From contig JANOZG010000143.1 of the NCBI GenBank assembly GCA_031429275.1, forward strand, positions 1-49,773: a DNA stretch of 49,773 nucleotides, in the 5' to 3' direction. Numbering within the stretch: the stretch's first letter is position 1; each line of letters starts with the position of its first letter. The position numbers were made by a program, and so were the translations under genes. Positions 11,575-47,865 of this stretch are shown here, one piece after another. The DNA is from Planctomycetota bacterium (lineage in GTDB: Bacteria; Planctomycetota; Planctomycetia; Planctomycetales; Planctomycetaceae). The notes under the pieces were generated by a model. It did no database searches. It was not told the origin of the DNA and saw only the letters and a list, made by a program, of their open reading frames with translations.

Positions 11575-13431
11575 CTATTCCCCCACGTCTGCCGCTGGAG
11601 TGTCTGCAGCTGGAGTGTCTGCAGGTACTGGTTCTGGCGACTCGGACTTTTCAGGCTTAATGACTTCTTCTTTGGATGTCGCAGAGGCTTCCGGTGTTGC
11701 AGAGGCTGGTTTCACTGACGCGTCAGGTTCTTCAGGCTTTGGTGCGGGTGCAACGAGTTCCCGTTGACGCAGGCTGTCGCCAAGTTTCAGCTTCCAAACG
11801 CCGGCCGCGTCTTTCATGGTGACGAAGCGATCAGTAATCGAAACGATCTCAGCACTGATCTCGGAAACGATGACTGTTTCGCCTTCCTGCAGAGGGCTGA
11901 CTTTGCCCGTCGCTTTGTTTCGAAACCATGCATACAACACCCCATCTTTGCCAACGATCCCTGACAACATGGTCAGTTGTGCAAAATCATCCTGCACGTC
12001 CAAAGAGATTTTTGCTGCGGCGGATTGTGGTTCAGATCCATTGTCCGTGACCTTAACTTCAACATCGTACTTGCCAGGGGCGAAGGTCTTTGGTGGTGTC
12101 CATTTGAGTTGTCCGGTCTTTGAATCGACGGACAATCCCTCTGGAGCACCCCCACCCAAAGAAAACGTCAGCATGTCTCCACCGTCTTCATCGGACGCAG
12201 TCGCGGTGATCGTGAATTCATTGCCCAGAACGACGATCGCTGACTCTTTCAACGTGATCTTCGGAGCGGCATTTGACTTCTTTACAGTGATCTTCAGTTG
12301 GGAGTCAATTTTGACGTCAGGGGTTTTTTCCTGAGTCATCAGCACAGTAGCTGTGTAATCGCCAGGTTTCAGATCCGCGAGAGGAGACCATTGGAACTCG
12401 CCCGTCATGGCATCAATAACCATGCCATCAGCGGCATCCGCTAACCCAAAGTTTGCGTCGCCCAGCTCCGGGTCAAGACCGTCCGCTTTTGCTGTGAACT
12501 TCACTACTTCTCCCGGCTTGATTGTCTTGCTGGAGACCCCGGTGATGCGCGGTGTGTACTTTTTCGGTGGCGATGGAATTACAAAGAATGAAGATTTAAC
12601 GAACTCTGCATATTGTTCAGAGGACTTCTCTTTTCGATCCCATGCAACGGGGAACAATTCAACAATCGCATCTGCTTCATGTGCTGCCGCTGTTGTCTCT
12701 TCTGCTCCTCGATTGACCTGCCAGCCGGCATCCGCAACAGCATCAACACGCATGAGTTCACGATCGATCCGGATGAAGAATGGCTCAAAAGGCGTTTCAG
12801 CGACAGGGAAGAATTCATTTGGTGCTGCGACGATGACCTTTTCGTCAACTTTGGTGTCGGTAGTCAGCGTTGTGCGTGCAAGCAATTCCCGTCGATCTTC
12901 GGCCCCGGCAGCGCTGATACCTTCGGCGGTCAGCGTGACTGACATTCGTGGATTGCCCTTTGGGCTGGGGCTGTTGATGCTGAGGGACGCAATGCGATGC
13001 AACATGTTTGCCTGATCGAACAGGTAGAGAAATTTCTTCAGTCCCTGTAAGTCGGTCTCTGCATTTCGGACTTCAACGGAAACAAGGCTATACTCTTTTT
13101 GAGAAGATTTTGAGCCAGGAACAACACTGATCCGGCTGAAGCCACATTCTTCTGCCAACGACTGAACCCATTCACGATACAGACGCTGCGAATTATCTAC
13201 ATCCGCTGGAAGGCTGATAGCCTTCCAGTCCTCAAGGTTACGTTTGGCAACGTCGAGCTGTATCTCCTGAGCAGCAAGTGTCTCGGCAGATTTTTCTGCT
13301 GCGATGACGTCGGATTGCAACGTGCGAATTGGTCCACGAATCCAGTTGTCCAGTTTTGTGCGCACCAGAAAGAACAGGACGACGAACGCCAATCCGCCAA
13401 CGAGTACTTTTTTTCGTGTCTGTTCGTCCAT
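11575..13431 (-). CDS. PilO/GspM-like bitopic membrane protein with a long C-terminal extension. The extension holds two cadherin-like/He_PIG Ig domains, a PilP/GspC-HR-like beta domain and a P/A/E-rich tail.
   Basis: The track ORF runs to TTG 13521. An ATG at 13431 gives MDEQTRKKVLVGGLAFVVLFFLV, which includes a TM helix. It is followed by a coiled coil and a PilO-like fold pattern (ISLPADVDNSQRLYREWVQSLAEECGFSRISV...EYSLVSVEVRNAETDLQGLKKFLYLFDQ). The Ig-like repeats include TATASDEDGGDMLTFSLGGGAPEGLSVDSKTGQLKWTPP...KYDVEVKVTDNGS. The PilP-like segment is LTMLSGIVGKDGVLYAWFRNKATGKVSPLQEGETV...VWKLKLG. Confidence 0.7.
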   Translation of the reverse strand: MDEQTRKKVLVGGLAFVVLFFLVRTKLDNWIRGPIRTLQSDVIAAEKSAETLAAQEIQLDVAKRNLEDWKAISLPADVDNSQRLYREWVQSLAEECGFSRISVVPGSKSSQKEYSLVSVEVRNAETDLQGLKKFLYLFDQANMLHRIASLSINSPSPKGNPRMSVTLTAEGISAAGAEDRRELLARTTLTTDTKVDEKVIVAAPNEFFPVAETPFEPFFIRIDRELMRVDAVADAGWQVNRGAEETTAAAHEADAIVELFPVAWDRKEKSSEQYAEFVKSSFFVIPSPPKKYTPRITGVSSKTIKPGEVVKFTAKADGLDPELGDANFGLADAADGMVIDAMTGEFQWSPLADLKPGDYTATVLMTQEKTPDVKIDSQLKITVKKSNAAPKITLKESAIVVLGNEFTITATASDEDGGDMLTFSLGGGAPEGLSVDSKTGQLKWTPPKTFAPGKYDVEVKVTDNGSEPQSAAAKISLDVQDDFAQLTMLSGIVGKDGVLYAWFRNKATGKVSPLQEGETVIVSEISAEIVSITDRFVTMKDAAGVWKLKLGDSLRQRELVAPAPKPEEPDASVKPASATPEASATSKEEVIKPEKSESPEPVPADTPAADTPAADVGE

Positions 13432-13564
13432 CACTATTTCCCGTTTACTTTTATCACTGCAATTCTTGTTGCCTGAATCCTGATCGCTGAATCGTCGGAC
13501 AGGCTTCCAGCCTGTCTTCAACTCACAGACGCAAAGCTTGCCCTGCGTCTGTCTGTTTGACTGA

Positions 13565-15031
13565 CTACGACGCTGGTTCGTCCTGAGGTACCGGCAAGGA
13601 GAGTTCCAGAACGACTTTCATGGCATATTCCGGAGCACCACTGGCCGGACTTGGCACGGGTAAATACGGCTTCACGCCGTAGCCCGCTTCGGCCAGAAGA
13701 CGTCCCGCCGTTTCAATGTCCTCTGGCGTTTTCCCATAGCCTTCCAATTTGACGACCCCCGTACCGCCTTTCTGCACAGTTGAAAACTGAACATTATCGA
13801 CAAAGAAACGATCAGTTTTAGGGAGCACAGACTGCAGTCTGATCACTTCGTCCAGCCACTCGATGTCACGATTGAGCCAGTTTTGAACGGCGTTTGCCTG
13901 AAGAAGTTCGGGTTCGCCGATGGCGAGTTTCTGCTTAATCTGATTGTTGGACCCTCCGAGCAGAGTCTTCTTTTCCGTCAACTCATTGATCTGCCCTTGT
14001 CGCCAGAAATGAATGCCGGCGAACAGCAACAAGGCTGCTAGTGTCCCACCCAGAACTGCCACGCGCCGATAATCTTTTTTCTCCGGTGGCTGACGAGGGT
14101 TGATCAAATCAACAGCCGCCACTTTAGACTTGGTGTCGCCCTGGATTGCTCCTGCCAAAGCCACCACATCGGTGGCAGTGATGCCTTCCGTCAGTTTCCC
14201 GTGAACCAGTGATGTTGCAGGATCAATGCGATCAATCGTCGCTGAATCAAACCGGGCAGCCATCTTATCGGAAACAGCGCTCGTTTCATCTGCCGAGCCG
14301 ATGAGCAGAATACGGCGAATTTTGTGATCGCCTAAGGATTCTGCTGCCGACATGCGAGCGCGTGTCAGTTCAGATCGAAGAGTCCGTTCAATCGCGTCTG
14401 CTGATGACCACGAACTGCCACTATGCGAATACAGCACGGCCGTGCCGCGCAGGAATGTCACTTCAATGAAGTCGCGACGCATGAGCACGACGACATCGAC
14501 AAACGACGTATCGGTGCTTTCCACCAGGATCCCTGCAGTCGCGGCGGCCTGTGCCAGGCAGAACGCGCTGACTCGAAGTTCTTTGAGTTCCAGCCCGGCG
14601 TCGCCTAATGTTCGGCGGGCCTGCGTCACTTGTTCGTTCGGAGCTGTCACCAGGAGCACGTCGCGAGTTGCACTGCCTGGAATGACTGGTAGCGGTGCGA
14701 AGTCCAGCCGGACCGTCTCCACAGGCACAGTGAGTCGCATCGTGGCCTGCATGCGGACCATGTCAGGCAGTTCAGCATCAGAGACTTGTGGCAGCTGAAC
14801 GCGATGAATTGTCACGAATTGCCTGGGGAAGACGACTGTGACCGTTGGATTACCCTTTCCAGCTGCGCTGCCAGCGAACTGCTTCAGCTGGTCCACCACC
14901 ATCAGCATGTCAGTCGCATCAGTTGGGCGATCGATAATCCGGGATGCAGTGATCTCTACGCGATTTCCGTCAGTTCGTCCTCGCGCCACGACCAGACGGT
15001 CGCGATCCCATTCGATAAAAATGTCGGACAT
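13565..15031 (-). CDS. PilM-PilN fusion (GspL-like): a cytoplasmic actin-like domain, a TM helix and a periplasmic PilN-like domain
   Basis: The protein is 488 aa. The N-terminal roughly 320 aa has PilM-like architecture (MSDIFIEWDRDRLVVARGR...). Then comes VDLINPRQPPEKKDYRRVAVLGGTLAALLLFAGIHFW, resembling the PilN INLLP motif plus a TM helix. A coiled coil and a small alpha/beta domain follow. It lies 44 nt upstream of the PilO-like gene on the same strand. Confidence 0.6.
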   Translation of the reverse strand: MSDIFIEWDRDRLVVARGRTDGNRVEITASRIIDRPTDATDMLMVVDQLKQFAGSAAGKGNPTVTVVFPRQFVTIHRVQLPQVSDAELPDMVRMQATMRLTVPVETVRLDFAPLPVIPGSATRDVLLVTAPNEQVTQARRTLGDAGLELKELRVSAFCLAQAAATAGILVESTDTSFVDVVVLMRRDFIEVTFLRGTAVLYSHSGSSWSSADAIERTLRSELTRARMSAAESLGDHKIRRILLIGSADETSAVSDKMAARFDSATIDRIDPATSLVHGKLTEGITATDVVALAGAIQGDTKSKVAAVDLINPRQPPEKKDYRRVAVLGGTLAALLLFAGIHFWRQGQINELTEKKTLLGGSNNQIKQKLAIGEPELLQANAVQNWLNRDIEWLDEVIRLQSVLPKTDRFFVDNVQFSTVQKGGTGVVKLEGYGKTPEDIETAGRLLAEAGYGVKPYLPVPSPASGAPEYAMKVVLELSLPVPQDEPAS

Positions 15032-15209
15032 GATATGGCTTTTTGCGTTCCGCTAAAGACGAGGGCTATACCTGCCCAATTCAACCCCGAAAACGGCATG
15101 GTGGTGTCGCGCAGGATGAGAAACAAGCGCAGGTTACTCAGGATGCGGTTTCCGGAGCAGGATTTTCCGTTTTTTCCGAAGTTGCGGGCAAAAATCCGGT
15201 GGATTGCAG

Positions 15210-15737
15210 TCAGGGAATTGACATTCTTTGGTCGCCTGGGTCGACTCCGATCGTCGGTATCGGCTGACCCTGCTGACCGATTTCAATCCAGTCTGTGCCA
15301 GCCTTTATGTCCATTCGATACGACCGCTTATGGATTTCATCTTCCTTCAGAAGCTTGTAAATATGAATTTCAAGCAGCGACAGGTCCGGCAGTGGCGCCT
15401 TCTCCAGAGCAAGTTCTCCGATGCGTTTTCGCATGAATGTCAGCTTCTGCTCGGACTCTTCCGTTTTAGCCAGCAGGTCGATTTCCGTTTTGACGAGGAT
15501 TCGAAGAATGGTAGGAGTATTCTTGCTGGGCTTCTTTTTCCCTCCATCAACGCGGGGAGCGGAGCCAGGAAATTCGCTGACGATCGCATCCTGCAAGGGT
15601 CTGAACGGGCCTAAATGCAGTTTTGAATATGCATACAGCAAGCCTGTGAGCGTAATTCCCATCACAAACATGCCGACGACCAGCCAGCGACCAGAAACGG
15701 TGCGTTCGCTGGGTAAAGTGAATTGTGGATCGGACAT
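15210..15737 (-). CDS. Single-pass membrane protein, hypothetical
   Basis: 175 aa. It has one TM helix (GRWLVVGMFVMGITLTGLLYAY) and a charged soluble domain. It lies upstream of, and on the same strand as, the PilMN-like gene, with a 178-nt gap. Confidence 0.55.
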   Translation of the reverse strand: MSDPQFTLPSERTVSGRWLVVGMFVMGITLTGLLYAYSKLHLGPFRPLQDAIVSEFPGSAPRVDGGKKKPSKNTPTILRILVKTEIDLLAKTEESEQKLTFMRKRIGELALEKAPLPDLSLLEIHIYKLLKEDEIHKRSYRMDIKAGTDWIEIGQQGQPIPTIGVDPGDQRMSIP

Positions 15738-15945
15738 GAATTGGTCGAATTTCTAAGAGTATCAACTTCCGTGACGGGCAAGGTTCAGCTCTCGGGGGAA
15801 GGACCTTCGACCCGACATTGAGGGACTGCCGACTTCCCTCTGCGTGGATTCTACGCGTTGCCCACAATCGAACCCACATTTCCCGCTAATTCACACGCAA
15901 TTTCCCGCGAACGATGCTTCCTGGGACTTCAAAGCTGGTTTCTCG

Positions 15946-15975
15946 TTGACGTTACTGCCACCTGTCTTCTACAGT
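15946..15975 (+). promoter_or_regulatory. Candidate sigma70-type promoter for the cimA leader
   Basis: TTGACG (15946-15951), an 18-nt spacer, then TACAGT (15970-15975). The predicted transcription start falls at about 15981-15983, at the leader ATG, so the leader ORF may be leaderless. Confidence 0.3.
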
Positions 15976-15982
15976 GTTGCTC

Positions 15983-16060
15983 ATGCACCACAGCATTTGC
16001 AGCATTCAGAACATTTGGATCGGCGGTATTATTATCGCTCGATCGCTGCAACATGCCTGA
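15983..16060 (+). CDS. Candidate isoleucine-rich leader peptide (25 aa) of the cimA attenuator
   Basis: Codons run from ATG 15983 to TGA 16058-16060. Translation is MHHSICSIQNIWIGGIIIARSLQHA, with 7 Ile in 25 residues. This includes the run ATT ATT ATC at 16028-16036. It is too short for the supplied track. Confidence 0.5.
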   Translation: MHHSICSIQNIWIGGIIIARSLQHA

Positions 16061-16110
16061 GGAAGATCCAAATTGATTCCAGCCCTCAGGACACCCCTGA
16101 GGGTTTTTTT
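16055..16110 (+). promoter_or_regulatory. Transcription attenuator: an intrinsic terminator with a competing antiterminator arm, 21 nt upstream of the cimA ATG
   Basis: The terminator is CCCTCAGG (16083-16090), loop ACACC, CCTGAGGG (16096-16103), then seven Ts (16104-16110). CCTGAGG at 16056-16062 overlaps the leader stop codon. It repeats the terminator 3' arm and can instead pair with 16084-16090. There is no upstream plus-strand gene that this terminator could serve. Confidence 0.65.
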
Positions 16111-16131
16111 ATTGGCTAAAGGCCGCAGAAT

Positions 16132-17712
16132 ATGGCTCGCATCCAGCTTTACGACACGACACTCCGCGACGGTTCACAAGGCGAAGGCGTCAATTTTTCG
16201 CTGCAGGACAAATTGATGATCGCCCAGAAACTGGACGATCTGGGCTTTGACTACATTGAAGGCGGATATCCGCTGTCGAATCCTAAAGACGAAGAATTCT
16301 TCCAGCGCGCTGCTGAGATGACATGGAAGCACGCGAAGATCACGGCCTTCGGTATGACACGTCGCAAAGGCATTGCCGCAAAGGACGATATCGGAATGCA
16401 GGCGCTGGTGAACAGCAAAGCGCCGGTGATCACCATCGTGGGCAAGACATGGGATCTGCACGTGACGGAGGTTCTTCGCGTTTCACTCGAAGAGAATCTG
16501 GCGATGATCAGCGATTCAATCGCGTTCGCGAAGTCGGAAGGTCGTGAAGTGATTTATGACGCCGAGCACTGTTTCGACGGTTGGCGTGCGAACCCGGAGT
16601 ACGCAGTACTCACATGGAAAGCTGCTGCCGACGCGGGTGCAGACATGATCTGCATGTGCGATACCAACGGCGGAAATCTTCCGGAACAAATCGTCGAAGC
16701 CGTGACGGCTCTGCAAAACGCCGTGAAGTGCCGTGTTGGCATTCACTGTCACAATGATTGTGAATTGGCTGTCGCGAATTCCCTCGCCGCTGTCAAAGTT
16801 GGAGCTGTTCAGGTTCAGGGAACAATCAACGGTATCGGCGAACGCTGTGGAAACGTCGATCTGGTTTCGGTTGCCGCGAATCTGTCGCTTAAGCTGGGCT
16901 ATGATGTGCTGGCACCGGGAAAGATTCAGCGTCTGACGGAACTGTCACGTTATGTCTACGAACTGGCAAATATGAATTTTCGTTCGGGCCAGGCTTTCGT
17001 TGGTACAAGTGCTTTCGCACACAAAGGCGGTATGCACGTTCACGCAGTCAATCGCATCGCACGCAGTTACGAACACATCACGCCAGATGCCGTCGGCAAC
17101 GAACGTCGCATTCTGGTGAGCGAACTTTCCGGCCGCTCGAATATCGTGGCCAAGACGACGAAGTTCAATATCAGCGAAAACAATGAACTCATGCAAAAGA
17201 TCCTGATCGCGGTGCAGGATCTGGAGAATGAGGGTTACCAATACGAAGCCGCCGAAGCGTCGTTCGATCTGCTCGTCATGAAACAGGCGGGGACTTACAC
17301 ACCAGCCTTTCAGCTGGAACATTACCGAGTGAACGTCGAAAACCAGGCACGCGAACCGATGACTGAGGCGGTGATCAAGCTGACAACCGGTTCGACATGC
17401 CAGCACGTGGTTGGCGAAGGCGACGGCCCTGTAAATGCTCTCGACAGCGCGCTGCGAAAGGCTTTGACAGCAGCGTATCCCCGTCTGTCAGAGATGACGC
17501 TTGTTGACTATAAAGTCCGCGTAATCAACAGCACCGAAGGTACGGCCGCCCGAGTCCGGGTAGTGATCGAAAGCCGCGACAAAGACGGCATGTGGAGCAC
17601 CGTTGGCGTCAGTGAAAACATCATCGAAGCCAGCTGGATCGCATTGGTAGATGCAATTGAATTCAAGATCCACAAGGATCGCGGAACGGTAAAAGCTGAC
17701 AAGGCTGGCTGA
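16132..17712 (+). CDS. cimA: (R)-citramalate synthase (IPMS/HMGL-like family, CimA type)
   Basis: 526 aa. Motifs include MARIQLYDTTLRDGSQGEGVNFS, GKTWDLHVTEVLRVSLEENL, HCHNDCELAVANSLAAV, VQGTINGIGERCGN and AFAHKGGMHVHAV. A C-terminal LeuA-dimer-type regulatory domain is present. The sequence is colinear with Geobacter-type CimA as I recall it. Confidence 0.85.
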   Translation: MARIQLYDTTLRDGSQGEGVNFSLQDKLMIAQKLDDLGFDYIEGGYPLSNPKDEEFFQRAAEMTWKHAKITAFGMTRRKGIAAKDDIGMQALVNSKAPVITIVGKTWDLHVTEVLRVSLEENLAMISDSIAFAKSEGREVIYDAEHCFDGWRANPEYAVLTWKAAADAGADMICMCDTNGGNLPEQIVEAVTALQNAVKCRVGIHCHNDCELAVANSLAAVKVGAVQVQGTINGIGERCGNVDLVSVAANLSLKLGYDVLAPGKIQRLTELSRYVYELANMNFRSGQAFVGTSAFAHKGGMHVHAVNRIARSYEHITPDAVGNERRILVSELSGRSNIVAKTTKFNISENNELMQKILIAVQDLENEGYQYEAAEASFDLLVMKQAGTYTPAFQLEHYRVNVENQAREPMTEAVIKLTTGSTCQHVVGEGDGPVNALDSALRKALTAAYPRLSEMTLVDYKVRVINSTEGTAARVRVVIESRDKDGMWSTVGVSENIIEASWIALVDAIEFKIHKDRGTVKADKAG

Positions 17713-17800
17713 ATTGCTGCCGTGCGGTTTTCATAAATCCCATTCTTCCATTGCTCTCATGGGAGTTATGCGAGGAACAGGACTCATTACGCCGACCAGA

Positions 17801-18268
17801 CTATTCTTCGTCCTTCGCCCAAAGATGATCTGCCAGCGCATTTGGGGCCGAGACAATTTCACCGGCCGCAAAGTACGTTGAAATTTCTCGAGCCGCTGCT
17901 TCGGGACCGTCGCTGCCATGAATAAGATTCATCTGGCGGCTGGCTCCGAGATCACCGCGAATGGTGCCCGGTGCGGATTCTCGTGAATTTGTTTTACCCA
18001 TCAGCGTTCGCATCACTGTGATCGCTTCGGGCCCCTCGACGACCATCGCCACAACTGGGCCGGATGTGATGAAGGCTTCCAGGTCTTTGTAGAATCCCTT
18101 TGAGACATGTTCGGCGTAGTGCTTCTTGCTTAGCTCCGGCGTCACCTGCAGCATCTTCATGCCAATGATACTCAGGCCCTTGTCTTCAATTCTCGAAACA
18201 ATGCGTCCGATCAGTCGTCGCTGCACACCGTCTGGTTTGACAAGAATCAATGTTCGTTCGAGGGCCAT
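17801..18268 (-). CDS. ndk: Nucleoside-diphosphate kinase
   Basis: 155 aa. Motifs include ERTLILVKPDGVQRRLIG and NLIHGSD (catalytic His). Confidence 0.95.
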   Translation of the reverse strand: MALERTLILVKPDGVQRRLIGRIVSRIEDKGLSIIGMKMLQVTPELSKKHYAEHVSKGFYKDLEAFITSGPVVAMVVEGPEAITVMRTLMGKTNSRESAPGTIRGDLGASRQMNLIHGSDGPEAAAREISTYFAAGEIVSAPNALADHLWAKDEE

Positions 18269-18409
18269 CTGTGGAAGACCTTTTCAGGTAGTTGAAACTA
18301 AAGAAGTATGTCTAATGTTTATTGAAAAATCACCAATGAATCGCAATTGAATCGCGAGGTTTGCCACTGGCTGCGAGTCGTTGGTCATTGGCAATTCGTC
18401 ATTGGGATT

Positions 18410-19540
18410 TCACGACGTCATCATTTGCAGAAATTCGCTGAACAAATAGTGGCTGTCATGAGGACCGGCGGCAGCTTCTGGATGATATTGAACTCCAAAC
18501 GCCGGAAACTTCGTGTGCCGAATGCCTTCGACTGTCTGGTCATTCAGATTGATATGAGTGACTTCAATGTCGGCCGGCAAAGTCGCTGAATCGACAGCAA
18601 AGCCGTGATTCTGTGATGTAATTTCCACTTTTCCGGTGCGACGGTCCAACACGGGCTGATTGGCACCACGATGCCCAAAACGCAGTTTGTAGGTCTTGCC
18701 ACCAAACGCCAGCCCAAGCAGCTGTAGCCCAAGGCAGATGCCGAAAATAGGCTTCTTGCCCAACAAGCCACGAATTGTTTCAATCGCGTAGGTCAGCGGT
18801 TCCGGATCTCCCGGACCATTCGACAAAAATACACCATCCGGATTGAGTGCCAGGACTTCCGCAGCCGTTGCTGTTCCGGGAACAATCGTGACTCGACAAC
18901 CGACATCGCGAAGATAACGCGACATATTCCATTTCATGCCATAGTCGATTGCCACAACATGTGGTCTGTCCGTTCGGTCAGCCCCGGAAGCGAAGTCCGC
19001 CGGACGACCAAGGTCGCTCAAAGACATGTCCCAATCGCAATTCTCCTTAGGCATTACTTCCTGAACGAGATCCCGACCGACAATTTCAGGGGCTTTTTGC
19101 AGTTTATTCAGCAACGAAGCATCATCCAGATCGACCGTCGAAAGAATGCCTTTCATGGCCCCTTGAGTTCTGATCTGACGGACCAATGCGCGAGTGTCGA
19201 TACCCTGCAGGCCAATGATGTTATTTCGCTTGAGGTATGAATCGAGAGATTCGGTTGAGCGATAGTTGCTCGGGAATTCGCATAATTCCTTGACAATAAA
19301 GCCCTTCAGGAACAAGCCTCTGCTTTCAACATCTTCAGCGTTGACTCCGTAGTTTCCGATCAGCGGATAGGTCATCGTGACGATCTGGCCTGTGTAGGAC
19401 GGGTCGGTCAGAATTTCCTGATAGCCAGTCATGCTGGTATTAAAAACAACTTCTCCGTTGACTTCTCCTGCAGCTCCAAAAGCCTGACCAGTGATGACTT
19501 TACCGTTTGCCAACGCCAGCTTAGCCGGGCGACTTGCCAT
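18410..19540 (-). CDS. carA: Carbamoyl-phosphate synthase small (glutaminase) subunit
   Basis: 376 aa. Motifs include EVVFNTSMTGYQEILTDPSYTGQIV, GICLGLQLL (catalytic Cys) and VQYHPEA. Confidence 0.95.
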   Translation of the reverse strand: MASRPAKLALANGKVITGQAFGAAGEVNGEVVFNTSMTGYQEILTDPSYTGQIVTMTYPLIGNYGVNAEDVESRGLFLKGFIVKELCEFPSNYRSTESLDSYLKRNNIIGLQGIDTRALVRQIRTQGAMKGILSTVDLDDASLLNKLQKAPEIVGRDLVQEVMPKENCDWDMSLSDLGRPADFASGADRTDRPHVVAIDYGMKWNMSRYLRDVGCRVTIVPGTATAAEVLALNPDGVFLSNGPGDPEPLTYAIETIRGLLGKKPIFGICLGLQLLGLAFGGKTYKLRFGHRGANQPVLDRRTGKVEITSQNHGFAVDSATLPADIEVTHINLNDQTVEGIRHTKFPAFGVQYHPEAAAGPHDSHYLFSEFLQMMTS

Positions 19541-19731
19541 GCCTCAATTCTCCCAGGGTCCGCGCGTAAAATCACCGCAGTTGAAAACACCGTTGAACGC
19601 GAAATCTACCAATCATCGCGTGGTGGGAGAAGTAACTGGCCAGCCAGGTGGGGAGTTTCGCGAAAATCAGATGATGCGAGGACTTGCTCAATACCGTCGT
19701 TTTTTTTGATGTATGAGACTATTCTGCACGC

Positions 19732-20490
19732 ATGACGTTCGCATTACTCCATGGAAAACGGATTCTTGTCACTGGGTCCTCAACCGGAATCGGTCGAGCG
19801 ATCCTGCTCGAATGCGCCAAGGCAGGGGCAGATGTGATCGTAAACTGTCGACGATCAGCGGATCGTGCGGAGACCGTTGCGGAGGAAGCTCAAGCGATGG
19901 GAGTGCAGGCCGATGTAATTTGTGCGGACGTGTCGGATGAAAATGATCGCCGAAAACTGGTCCGGGGCGCATTTGATTCCGGCCGAGTTGACGCGATCGT
20001 CAACAATGCAGGAGCCGACTTGCTGACGACCGAACTTCGCAATTCTGAGTTTGCTCTAAAGCTGAACGCATTGATTCAAACCGACATGACAGGCACAATC
20101 GAATTGTCTCGTGCGTTCGGCAAACGCTTTAAGGAACAAGGTCGCGGAGCGATTCTGAATATCGGCTGGGACCAGTCGGACCGCGGCATGGAAGGCGACA
20201 GTGGCGAATTGTTCGCGACCGCCAAAAATGCCATTATGGGATTCAGTCGTTCGCTGGCCGTGAGCCTGGCTCCGGACGTACGAGTAAATTGCATTGCCCC
20301 CGGCTGGATTCGCACGGCATGGGGTGAAAATGCCAGCGATTACTGGCAGCTACGAGTCATGAATGAGACGCCGCTGAAACGCTGGGGGGAGCCGCAGGAC
20401 ATTGCGAACATGGCTCGATACCTGCTGAGTGATGATGCTGCGTATATCACGGGCCAGGTGATCAATGTAAACGGAGGAGCGGTGCGATGA
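19732..20490 (+). CDS. SDR-family oxidoreductase (FabG-like)
   Basis: 252 aa. It has a TGSSTGIGRA Rossmann motif and an NNAG motif. FATAKNA is a YxxxK-like region with F in place of Y. The C-terminus is ITGQVINVNGG. Confidence 0.85.
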   Translation: MTFALLHGKRILVTGSSTGIGRAILLECAKAGADVIVNCRRSADRAETVAEEAQAMGVQADVICADVSDENDRRKLVRGAFDSGRVDAIVNNAGADLLTTELRNSEFALKLNALIQTDMTGTIELSRAFGKRFKEQGRGAILNIGWDQSDRGMEGDSGELFATAKNAIMGFSRSLAVSLAPDVRVNCIAPGWIRTAWGENASDYWQLRVMNETPLKRWGEPQDIANMARYLLSDDAAYITGQVINVNGGAVR

Positions 20491-21200: not shown

Positions 21201-22850
21201 TCATTCCGCCCTCTCCAGTACTGCCTCATAGATCGCTTTCGCTCTGTGGTACTCCGCCAGTGATTCGTCTGGCAGCACACCGGTGTTGCGAGCGATCTCT
21301 TCGTCCATGCGTTTGATGAAGAATGCCGCGTCCCGGCGGCGTGGAATCAGCGGCGATCCGGGAACTTCGACGAATACGGGATTCGTGTGAGCGAAGCTAA
21401 CTTTGCCGTCGGGCAGGTCTTCGAAACATCGCAGAGCCAGCCAACCGGAACCATGGACAGTTTCGACAAGGTCAATCGGATACGTAAATGCACCCTCCGG
21501 CGATTGCTGCGGCTGAATGTCCAATGTCTGAGCCACCACACCGTTGTGAATGATTTCAATCCTGCGAATTCGATTGGGACTGATGACCGTGCCGGTGATC
21601 GCGATCGCGTTCTCCCTGGAATCCTTTAACCACGTCGTGCCCGGCAGTTCACCATTGAAACGCAGATCGACCAGCGGACCAGTTGTCACGAAGCTATGGC
21701 CAGCGTTCAGATTGGTGATCCATTTGTCATACGAAAACTCTTCGCCGGTATGCACATAGACGCGGCCGTGGCCCAGAGGAACGGGGTGTACGCCGGTACC
21801 TGTTCCCGCAGTGACTCGCATGTGAAAGCCGCAGTTCAGAAGTGAGTAATACGTCTGCATGGAAAATTCGGTCCAGCCGAGATCAGTGAAGCCTGCAGCA
21901 TCGCGTTCCACTTCCGGCCAGTCTGGCGCGTTTTCAATCGTCCATTGCGGAAAGCCAAACTTTGTGCGCCAGTTGTGATTGTTGCTGAGTTCAAACAGAT
22001 CAACATTCATGATGGGTACAATCATCATCGACCATGCCCAGGAGTGTTTGTCCAGATCCAGAATCGCTCCTTGCCGCCGCGATTCTTCAGCGACGGGAAG
22101 TGCAGGCGGCGTGGGCTGGTTGAGCGGCGTTTTGTGATTGAGAACGAAGACGGCTCCCTGAGTATGTCGCTTGCCATCGACCGAAAAAATCTCGTATTCC
22201 GTGTTGATTGGATAAATCAGATGTGTTGCATCGACAACGATCGGTTTTGCTTCCATCGCCGGTCCGGATGCAGCCGGAATCTCCTTGCTGTCGCGCACCC
22301 AATACGTCATTGGAAACGCCACATTGAGATCTTCCGCGACAACAAGATTCGGCAATTCTTCCAAGGTGCGATGGGCATGAGTATCGCCCGAAAACCAGCC
22401 GCGTTTCGGCATGTTCACAAATCGCTTCATGCGAAGCTGGAATTCAAATGGTTCTGTACCGATGTTGATTTCAGTGTTGGCAGACAGGAATTCTTTCCCG
22501 TATTCGGCGCGAATCTGGTACTTGCCCGGCAAAAGTTGCAGTGCAAATGGGCCTGCCGAAAGTGTCGTGTGCATTTCAATCGAAGCGGTCTGACCGACCT
22601 GCTTTTTGTACTCGACCGCAGACCCAGCTGAACTACTGGATTTCGCGAAGTTCCATTCGCCAGAATCCAGGTTTTGCACGTAAAGGCGACATGGCAGGCT
22701 GTCGCCGGATGCTGCATCGACAACACTGCCAGTGACTTCGGCGGCAGCAGTTACGGCATTGAGGATTGATACAGCAGAAATCGCTGCCGCGATTTGAGCG
22801 ATCGTTCTAAACAATCTGGTGGGAGAATAGTGTATCAATGTAAGTTCCAT
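21201..22850 (-). CDS. Secreted CehA/McbA-like PHP-type metallohydrolase
   Basis: 549 aa with a signal peptide. An N-terminal beta-sandwich is followed by WFSGDTHAHRT, a PHP metal motif. It is a paralog of the next gene (LLNCGFHMRV...GHGRVYV versus LLNCGYPLKL...GQGRVYV). Confidence 0.7.
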   Translation of the reverse strand: MELTLIHYSPTRLFRTIAQIAAAISAVSILNAVTAAAEVTGSVVDAASGDSLPCRLYVQNLDSGEWNFAKSSSSAGSAVEYKKQVGQTASIEMHTTLSAGPFALQLLPGKYQIRAEYGKEFLSANTEINIGTEPFEFQLRMKRFVNMPKRGWFSGDTHAHRTLEELPNLVVAEDLNVAFPMTYWVRDSKEIPAASGPAMEAKPIVVDATHLIYPINTEYEIFSVDGKRHTQGAVFVLNHKTPLNQPTPPALPVAEESRRQGAILDLDKHSWAWSMMIVPIMNVDLFELSNNHNWRTKFGFPQWTIENAPDWPEVERDAAGFTDLGWTEFSMQTYYSLLNCGFHMRVTAGTGTGVHPVPLGHGRVYVHTGEEFSYDKWITNLNAGHSFVTTGPLVDLRFNGELPGTTWLKDSRENAIAITGTVISPNRIRRIEIIHNGVVAQTLDIQPQQSPEGAFTYPIDLVETVHGSGWLALRCFEDLPDGKVSFAHTNPVFVEVPGSPLIPRRRDAAFFIKRMDEEIARNTGVLPDESLAEYHRAKAIYEAVLERAE

Positions 22851-22983
22851 ATTGAATCGAAGCTACGTGAATGTGAAAAAGGCATGACGGACAGGATCAT
22901 AATTGTGGCTTCTGGTTGTAGAATTTGTATTTTGCCATAGTTCTTTCCACTTCAGTTTCTAAGCCATCATGCTTTCGAAGCTG

Positions 22984-30285: not shown

Positions 30286-30349
30286 GGACGGGGCTCCTGT
30301 CCCGTCCACGAACATCCAAAAAATCAGGACGGGACTGGAGTCCCGTCCT
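30286..30349. repeat. Two adjacent REP-like palindromes. The second is the same element as the one at 42426-42453.
   Basis: An imperfect copy, GGACGGGGC-TCCT-GTCCCGTCC, lies at 30286-30307. A perfect copy, AGGACGGGACT-GG-AGTCCCGTCCT, lies at 30326-30349. Both sit just downstream of the DUF1851 gene. Confidence 0.8.
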
Positions 30350-30366
30350 ACGAGATACTTGGATCC

Positions 30367-47829: not shown

Positions 47830-47865
47830 AATCTCGCTGTCAGGCCACGACAGCGAGATTTTTTA
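47830..47865 (+). terminator. Intrinsic terminator of tRNA-Ser
   Basis: AATCTCGCTGTC - AGGCCAC - GACAGCGAGATT forms a 12-bp stem that runs into a TTTTTT tract. Confidence 0.85.

Follow-up and report, generated by a model that had tools for sequence, protein, structure and literature searches.

In the enterobacterial attenuators, which include ilvL (ilvGMEDA), ivbL (ilvBN), and the trp, his, leu, thr, and phe leaders, a short open reading frame (ORF) enriched in codons for the end product lies 5' of an intrinsic terminator, which in turn precedes the first structural gene. Whether a ribosome stalls on the leader decides how the RNA folds, and a mutually exclusive antiterminator has its 5' strand at the leader stop codon. 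The same arrangement is found 5' of cimA, the citramalate synthase gene, in a 49,773-nucleotide (nt) stretch of DNA from a Planctomycetota bacterium (contig JANOZG010000143.1; hereafter, the window). CimA catalyzes the committed step of the citramalate route, which leads to 2-oxobutyrate and isoleucine (Ile), and directs carbon to Ile only. Our analysis of the window and of related loci indicates that the element is very probably a ribosome-mediated leader-peptide transcription attenuator, which would tie cimA transcription to the supply of charged tRNA-Ile.

The element has no sequence or structure homology to the enterobacterial attenuators, and the Rfam leader families give no match here. 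It is therefore an analogue, rather than a homologue, of the curated leader families. Further differences are seen in its parts (regions 1 to 4 are defined in Table 1). The gene that would be regulated is cimA, of the citramalate route, and not an ilv or leu gene, and the codons are nearly pure Ile, whereas those of the enterobacterial leaders are mixed Ile, Val, and Leu. Region 2 literally repeats the terminator 3' arm and has the stop codon within it. Translation of the leader ORF is probably leaderless in the clade of the window, and the protective pairing of region 1 with region 2 shows no clear conservation.

Leader ORFs rich in branched-chain codons have been predicted or tested 5' of ilvB in Actinobacteria (PMC1262725) and in the ilvB-II, ilvB-OMG, and Leptospira ilvB motifs (PMC10272879). 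Like the element described here, these combine such ORFs with terminators, draw on comparative genomics, and were read as attenuators in nonmodel phyla. However, they concern another gene, other taxa, and other motifs, and none is given for cimA or for Planctomycetota in either report (PMC1262725, PMC10272879). T-box leaders follow the same logic, in that scarce or uncharged tRNA-Ile relieves a terminator 5' of a branched-chain gene. T-boxes with an Ile specifier are located 5' of leuA/cimA-like genes in Firmicutes and have been reported for some Deltaproteobacteria. T-box control of COG0119 genes of the leuA/cimA family has been reported in Bacillota (PMC12452182). The T-box, in contrast to the element in the window, senses tRNA directly through a structured RNA of ~200 nt and without translation, whereas the sensor here would be a translated ORF. 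Identity with a T-box was rejected, because the Rfam T-box covariance model, which scores the specifier stem and the antiterminator T-box sequence jointly and not one by one, gives no match (E ≤ 10) and the region 5' of the terminator is an ORF of variable sequence. A full-text literature search, with subscription journals mostly outside its scope, returned no description of a cimA or planctomycete attenuator, and Russian-school attenuation surveys could list one; a first-pass annotation of the window, made from the sequence alone, had likewise been aware of none. The cimA attenuator is probably undescribed for both the gene and the phylum.

The first-pass annotation had proposed an Ile-rich leader ORF with a threefold Ile run, a terminator, and a copy of the terminator 3' arm across the leader stop codon, all 5' of cimA, and each of these parts is present where it had been placed (Table 1). 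The identity of CimA is supported by the NCBIfam equivalog TIGR00977, which gives 689 bits against a cutoff of 450. Seven of the 25 leader codons encode Ile (at 15995, 16004, 16013, 16019, 16028, 16031, and 16034), and the last of them ends 19 nt 5' of region 2; region 2 and the core of the terminator 3' arm have the same sequence. The terminator is composed of a 5' arm, CCCTCAGG (16083-16090), the loop ACACC, and a 3' arm, CCTGAGGG (16096-16103); its stem of 8 pairs can be extended to 10 over 16081-16105. Only 21 nt (16111-16131) separate the T7 tract from the cimA ATG (16132). The region 1 hairpin adjoins region 2, and the full-length predicted fold extends it weakly onto region 2.

Table 1. 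Features of the cimA leader region, with positions in the window.
Feature	Position	Strand	Description
Promoter-like site	15946-15975	+	-35 TTGACG 15946-15951, 18-nt spacer, -10 TACAGT 15970-15975; from a consensus scan
Leader ORF	15983-16060	+	25 codons, peptide MHHSICSIQNIWIGGIIIARSLQHA; ATG 15983, TGA 16058-16060
Candidate regulatory codons	16028-16036	+	ATT ATT ATC, three successive Ile codons; putative ribosome stall site
Region 1	15993-16056	+	Leader-internal hairpin around the Ile run; predicted −27.2 kcal/mol
Region 2	16056-16062	+	CCTGAGG, antiterminator 5' strand; holds the leader stop codon
Region 3	16081-16090	+	AGCCCTCAGG, shared strand; pairs with region 2 or region 4
Region 4	16096-16110	+	CCTGAGGGTT (16096-16105) plus T7 tract (16104-16110); with region 3, the intrinsic terminator
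cimA	16132-17712	+	Citramalate synthase, 526 aa, TIGR00977; proposed regulated gene

Chance is an unlikely explanation for these features. Ile accounts for 5.0% of codons in the 21 genes of the window, from which the probability of at least 7 in 24 codons is 1.3 × 10^-4. The window holds 396 ATG-started ORFs with lengths of 15-60 codons, and of these the leader ORF alone reaches at least 25% Ile. The fold of the 161-nt leader region has a z score of −4.0 and beats all 200 shuffles. Strong intrinsic terminators number five in the 49.8-kb window, and the leader hairpin is the top terminator-like site within 13000-20000.

Conservation was examined in a homologue set obtained by scanning one genome per species for CimA relatives. 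The set holds 80 loci, mostly labeled Planctomycetaceae, with 67-96% CimA identity to the window, and 76 of them have upstream sequence. A hairpin of the form CCCUCAGG-loop-CCUGAGGG-U-run, i.e., CCUC(A/G)G-loop-C(U/C)G(A/G)GG followed by a U-run, is present 5' of cimA in 71 of the 76. A stricter version of this pattern has a single match in each locus and a single match in the entire window. The U-run has at least six residues in nearly all loci, and the distance from the terminator to cimA is 100-280 nt in some. Many of the 71 loci are mutually related, so that locus counts overstate the number of independent observations; several independent lineages are evident from divergent leader peptides and differing antiterminator flanks.

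The first-pass annotation had proposed comparing relatives for a short Ile-rich ORF and for compensatory changes in both hairpins, and both are found. In 70 of the 71 loci, the hairpin is preceded by a short Ile-rich ORF whose end lies 21-43 nt away. Neither the sequence nor the length of the leader peptide is conserved, as illustrated by MSFSIISIQIIGLGGIIPARPPLYA, MTTPIIGIQIISICGVIVSSRN, MPVSYTDNVSSIIIICKITGSS, ...FAIPVEIIVITIS, ...VGAIVIIIGRHT, and MIRRNITILIDNIILAPIVQIIAVRTATG, and by the endings ...VEIIVITIS and ...AIVIIIGRHT, and only the Ile content and the position of the ORF are kept. The Ile bias was quantified as the maximal in-frame ATH count over three frames in the 85 nt 5' of the stop region. 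This best-frame count averages 5.58, compared to 2.17 after shuffling, with p ≤ 0.05 in 62 of the 71 loci. In-frame runs of at least two Ile codons are seen in 62 loci and runs of at least three in 18. The retention of position, frame, and amino acid bias without a conserved peptide is the mark of a regulatory leader peptide. Compensatory changes support the terminator as well: across 29 aligned loci its stem is 97.2% paired, and 16 double-change cells fall in the three outer pairs (0/500 shuffles).

The antiterminator is similarly conserved. The best pairing partner of the terminator 5' arm was located in each locus; it always overlaps the leader stop codon or begins within ~10 nt after it. 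The hexamer of a locus's own 3' arm recurs exactly within 56 nt 5' of the 5' arm in 36 of the 71 loci, against 1.03 expected; in the remaining loci, variants of region 2 pair by means of G-U pairs or with a bulge. Essentially every locus has a copy of the 3' arm at or shortly after the leader stop codon. The duplex of regions 2 and 3 (2:3) was computed with region 3 taken as the 5' arm plus the loop; an 11-nt version underestimated antiterminators that reach into the loop. Its mean energy, −18.2 kcal/mol, is close to that of the terminator hairpin, −18.6 kcal/mol, and it has z < −2 against dinucleotide shuffles in 55 of the 71 loci.

Covariation is found in the flanks of this duplex. Because 1-nt bulges shift the register, MAFFT columns are unsuitable for the 2:3 flanks, and alignment-free partner-swap tests were used instead. 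Among 48 loci with distinct arm-plus-loop sequences, region 2 pairs better with its own region 3 than with a swapped one (0/5000 permutations). With the core left out, so that the 5' flank of region 2 is set against just the loop side of region 3, the summed energy is −272 kcal/mol for true partners versus −189 ± 13 kcal/mol for swapped ones (0/5000). Flank pairs that co-vary include GCCAGCAAAUCUGAGG/CCUCAGGUCUGCUGGC (L073), GUGCGACUGUGAGG/CCUCAGGUCGCAC (L059), and GGGUGAUUUUGAGG/CCUCAGGACACCC (L039). Two further cases were recognized by eye. In Thalassoglobus neptunius KOR42 (L061), an altered core is matched throughout (region 3 CCUCGGAU, region 2 AUCUGAGG, region 4 AUUCGAGG), and in L065 region 2 (AUCUGAGG) is changed to match the core of region 3 (CCUCAGAU). 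The longer co-varying antiterminators belong to the more distant clades.

Predicted folds behave as expected for mutually exclusive structures, in agreement with the antiterminator that the first-pass annotation had drawn. In the window, the 2:3 pairing is part of the lowest-energy structure before region 4 has been made, and the terminator forms at full length, and with the stop-codon region masked as by a ribosome ending translation there. Of the 71 loci, 67 have the terminator in their full-length lowest-energy fold, and 54 have the 2:3 pairing in the lowest-energy fold computed before region 4. The start region of cimA takes no part in the alternative pairings.

These observed parts, with their conservation, alternative pairings, covariation, and specificity for cimA (see below), suggest how the element would work; ribosome stalling, footprint geometry, hairpin kinetics, coupling of transcription and translation, and the transcription start are inferred. 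The promoter named in the first-pass annotation is present in the window, and TTGAC-17/18-TAnAnT occurs at the equivalent place in most related loci. A distance of 6-7 nt separates the end of the -10 box from the leader start codon in ~20 loci of the clade to which the window belongs, and transcription is accordingly predicted to start on the A of the leader ATG (15983) or immediately beside it. This spacing fits the earlier suggestion of leaderless translation, and it is plausible that the leader peptide is translated from a leaderless RNA in this clade. Other clades have a 5' leader of 15-70 nt, some with GGAGG-like sites. When Ile-tRNA is plentiful, the ribosome would reach the TGA (16058-16060) and cover region 2 (CCUGAGG, 16056-16062). 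Region 3 (16081-16090) would then pair with region 4 (16096-16105), and termination in the U7 tract would yield a transcript of ~126 nt. When Ile-tRNA is scarce, the ribosome would stall on the Ile codons, above all those at 16028-16036, with its footprint, given the established footprint size, ending ~6 nt short of region 2. The free region 2 could capture region 3 as it emerges, no terminator would form, and the polymerase would read into cimA. All loci share this geometry of the stop codon, which is placed within region 2 or no farther than ~10 nt 5' of it.

Six loci (L038, L043-L045, L047, and L048) have two tandem candidate region 2 elements, ~50-28 nt 5' of the terminator 5' arm (CCUGAGGAGCGAAUCUGAGG in L044 and L047). 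In this clade, the first copy holds the stop codon and the last Ile codon lies one codon earlier, such that only the second copy would be free of a stalled ribosome.

To examine whether the module is confined to cimA, metagenome contigs were matched to the pattern CTGAGG-N12-42-CCTCAGG-N3-20-CCTGAGGNNTTTT. Matches were obtained on 69 contigs, ~50 of which have cimA immediately 3' and 3 of which are cut by the contig end. The other ~15 matches are gene 3'-end terminators or repeats without an Ile ORF, and the module was therefore rejected before genes other than cimA. Since matches with an Ile leader occur only before cimA, the module is tied to this gene. Two metagenome loci (L103 and L108) represent a deep lineage in which CimA is only 57% identical; their leader, MIFGPQAPSFRQVPKVYPLIGGVVGIIIIPLLGA, has its stop codon embedded in GCCUGAGG.

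A CimA protein search from the window found near relatives only, and a search with the L108 CimA reached proteins with Pirellulales names. The clusters seeded by L108 carry the names Thermogutta terrifontis, Thermoguttaceae, Pirellulales, and Rhodopirellula sp. Nine of ten further cimA loci have a short Ile-rich or Ile/Val-rich ORF followed by a terminator, with leader endings such as ...VAARIIGIIIG, ...GDVVVGVIAVIIRNAGP, ...RRIDTIGIIIGA, and ...CAICVAIIIQISEVRP. L151 has a different core in the same layout: its stop codon falls within GCCUUGAGGGC, which repeats the terminator 3' arm, and the 5' arm facing it is GCCCUUAAGGC. The architecture shared by loci with Pirellulales and Thermoguttaceae names shows that the element spans at least two orders of Planctomycetia. 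Seven loci with a Pirellulales-type CimA (L150, L151, L153-L156, and L159) have valS, the gene for valyl-tRNA synthetase, 3' of cimA on the same strand, either overlapping cimA or up to ~700 nt 3' of it, and in one locus beyond another ORF. Several leaders in these loci are Val- as well as Ile-rich, e.g., GDVVVGVIAVII and GDVGVVGVIVVII. The attenuator in Pirellulales-type loci may control a cimA-valS unit and sense both Ile and Val.

Three alternatives to attenuation were weighed. The leader unit could be a small gene or small RNA in its own right, ended by a terminator of its own and producing a functional hydrophobic peptide or a trans-acting RNA of ~126 nt, with cimA transcribed separately. 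The unit does have its own conserved promoter and terminator, and in the loci where the terminator is 100-280 nt from cimA there is room for a second promoter. Attenuator-derived RNAs and peptides that act in trans, rnTrpL and peTrpL, are known from Sinorhizobium. However, the peptide is conserved in neither sequence nor length, with Ile content alone kept, and the U-tract ends only 21 nt before the cimA ATG in the window. The unit is always linked to cimA in constant orientation, and a conserved, co-varying alternative pairing would be purposeless in a plain terminator. We consider this explanation very unlikely, and a trans-acting role could exist on top of attenuation.

A second explanation, which we judge to be just as improbable, is control by a riboregulator whose ligand is a protein, metabolite, or tRNA, with the CCUGAGG/CCUCAGG elements as recognition sites or part of an aptamer and the Ile ORF incidental. 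The core of the three elements is unusually invariant, and sequence-specific recognition would explain this as well as three-way pairing does. Such invariance is, however, already expected of one strand that pairs with two others, and an Ile-rich open frame lies 5' of region 2 in 70 of the 71 loci despite its variable sequence, which an aptamer would not predict. An Rfam cmscan of 15000-17000 (E ≤ 10) found no relevant family, including T-box, the known leader families, and ilvB-OMG; the best match within the element, NsiR1, is at chance level (15.9 bits against a gathering cutoff of 39). Least probable of all is translational control. Here, translating the leader would affect how cimA is translated or how stable its mRNA is, e.g., through reinitiation or by opening structure, and the hairpin would be merely structural. 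Reinitiation at leader ORFs near structural genes has been proposed to raise translation in several phyla, Planctomycetes included (PMC4833913). However, the hairpin has the canonical form of an intrinsic terminator, its U-run reaching six or more residues nearly everywhere, the leader stop lies 70-300 nt from cimA, far past the reinitiation peak of 10-16 nt (PMC4833913), and the alternative pairings exclude the cimA start region.

Several points weigh against transcription attenuation, beginning with the nature of its support, which is sequence comparison and predicted folds throughout. The transcription start and leaderless initiation are deduced from a consensus match alone, and no demonstration of transcription-translation coupling is known from Planctomycetota. 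In the clade of the window, the antiterminator is only a 7-9-bp core. Its predicted energy in the window is −12.4 kcal/mol (16053-16093), compared to −17.1 kcal/mol for the terminator (16081-16105), so that read-through must be won kinetically. The 2:3 core by itself gives no covariation in the 29 aligned loci, being 97.7% paired with zero double changes. Region 3 carries an invariant CCUCAG core in all 29 of these diverse loci, as expected because one strand must pair with two partners. A pairing of regions 1 and 2 like that of trp leaders is predicted in only 37 of 54 loci, which leaves the role of region 1 as a protector or pause hairpin uncertain. The state in which the leader is not translated appears to be the weakest point of the attenuation model. 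Two loci also depart from the pattern. One (L063, 2670-3000) is without a leader or terminator directly 5' of cimA, which is abutted by what appears to be another coding region; the other (L077, 2750-2970) has the hairpin, but the preceding ORF is without an Ile codon.

On the present comparison, we lean slightly toward regarding the element as the first described conserved ribosome-dependent attenuator in Planctomycetota: an apparently ancient, cimA-specific Ile sensor of at least Planctomycetales and Pirellulales-named lineages, leaderless in one clade, that would imply coupled transcription and translation. Because the element needs a ribosome close behind the polymerase, its conservation is indirect evidence for such coupling in planctomycetes, whose cell plan and possible separation of transcription and translation are debated (PMC5394234, PMC6212462, PMC6554331). 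If this is true, the element would provide a simple reporter for coupling, lineage by lineage, including Gemmata. It would extend leader-peptide attenuation to Planctomycetota and to the citramalate route of Ile synthesis, and would put the Ile-sensing control of the citramalate pathway of the phylum at cimA and not at ilvA or ilvB. The element is also a candidate for a new RNA or leader family and for a natural Ile-responsive switch in organisms with few genetic tools.

The surroundings of the element in the window were also examined. As the first-pass annotation had stated, no plus-strand gene lies 5' of the leader, and the terminator therefore ends no upstream gene. The 5' neighbor is a divergent minus-strand ORF of 175 aa (15210-15737), which aligns full-length in 10 related loci, better than the overlapping plus-strand ORFs; these were rejected as genes on that basis. 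A plus-strand ORF of 91 aa (15844-16119) was rejected because it spans both the promoter and the terminator. Inside the divergent ORF, a weak Rfam match to DUF3800-III (15257-15321, minus strand; 18.5 bits against a gathering cutoff of 43.8, E = 0.78) is taken as chance. On the 3' side, the next gene, ndk (17801-18268), is convergent, so cimA is monocistronic here.

The only other strong canonical terminators of the window are at 30325-30350 (minus strand) and 47831-47859 (plus strand). Both lie 3' of a same-strand gene, suggesting that intrinsic termination is used, sparingly, at gene ends in this genome. Three successive Ile codons occur in only two other short ATG-started ORFs of the window, both on the plus strand: 22884-22940 (MTDRIIIVASGCRICILP), between two minus-strand genes, and 22009-22137 (MMGTIIIDHAQ...), antisense to a gene. 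As no terminator follows either, both are probably due to chance. Two of the metagenome matches before genes other than cimA (L094, 11080-11243, and L148, 80-241) are arrays of short GCCCUGAGGGCG / GCCCGAAGGGC hairpin-like repeats beside a terminator; they look like REP-type intergenic repeats unrelated to the attenuator.

Leader Ile codons are 72% ATT (186 ATT, 71 ATC, and 1 ATA), as counted with a nearest-stop frame rule that picks the wrong frame in ~20 loci. The 21 genes of the window use 43% ATT (ATT:ATC:ATA, 242:296:24), and cimA itself has 7 ATT versus 25 ATC. The ATT excess in the leaders may reflect selection for a wobble-read codon or merely a lower G+C content of the leader.

The element also corrects over-extended CimA gene models. 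In a clade with 84% identity (L008 and L011, 2779-3000), public models give a 600-aa "CimA" or "2-isopropylmalate synthase", whose additional 74 N-terminal residues are the translated promoter, leader ORF (in another frame), and terminator. These 600-aa models are a gene-calling artifact. CimA of Fuerstiella marisgermanici likewise exists in 523-aa and 574-aa versions.

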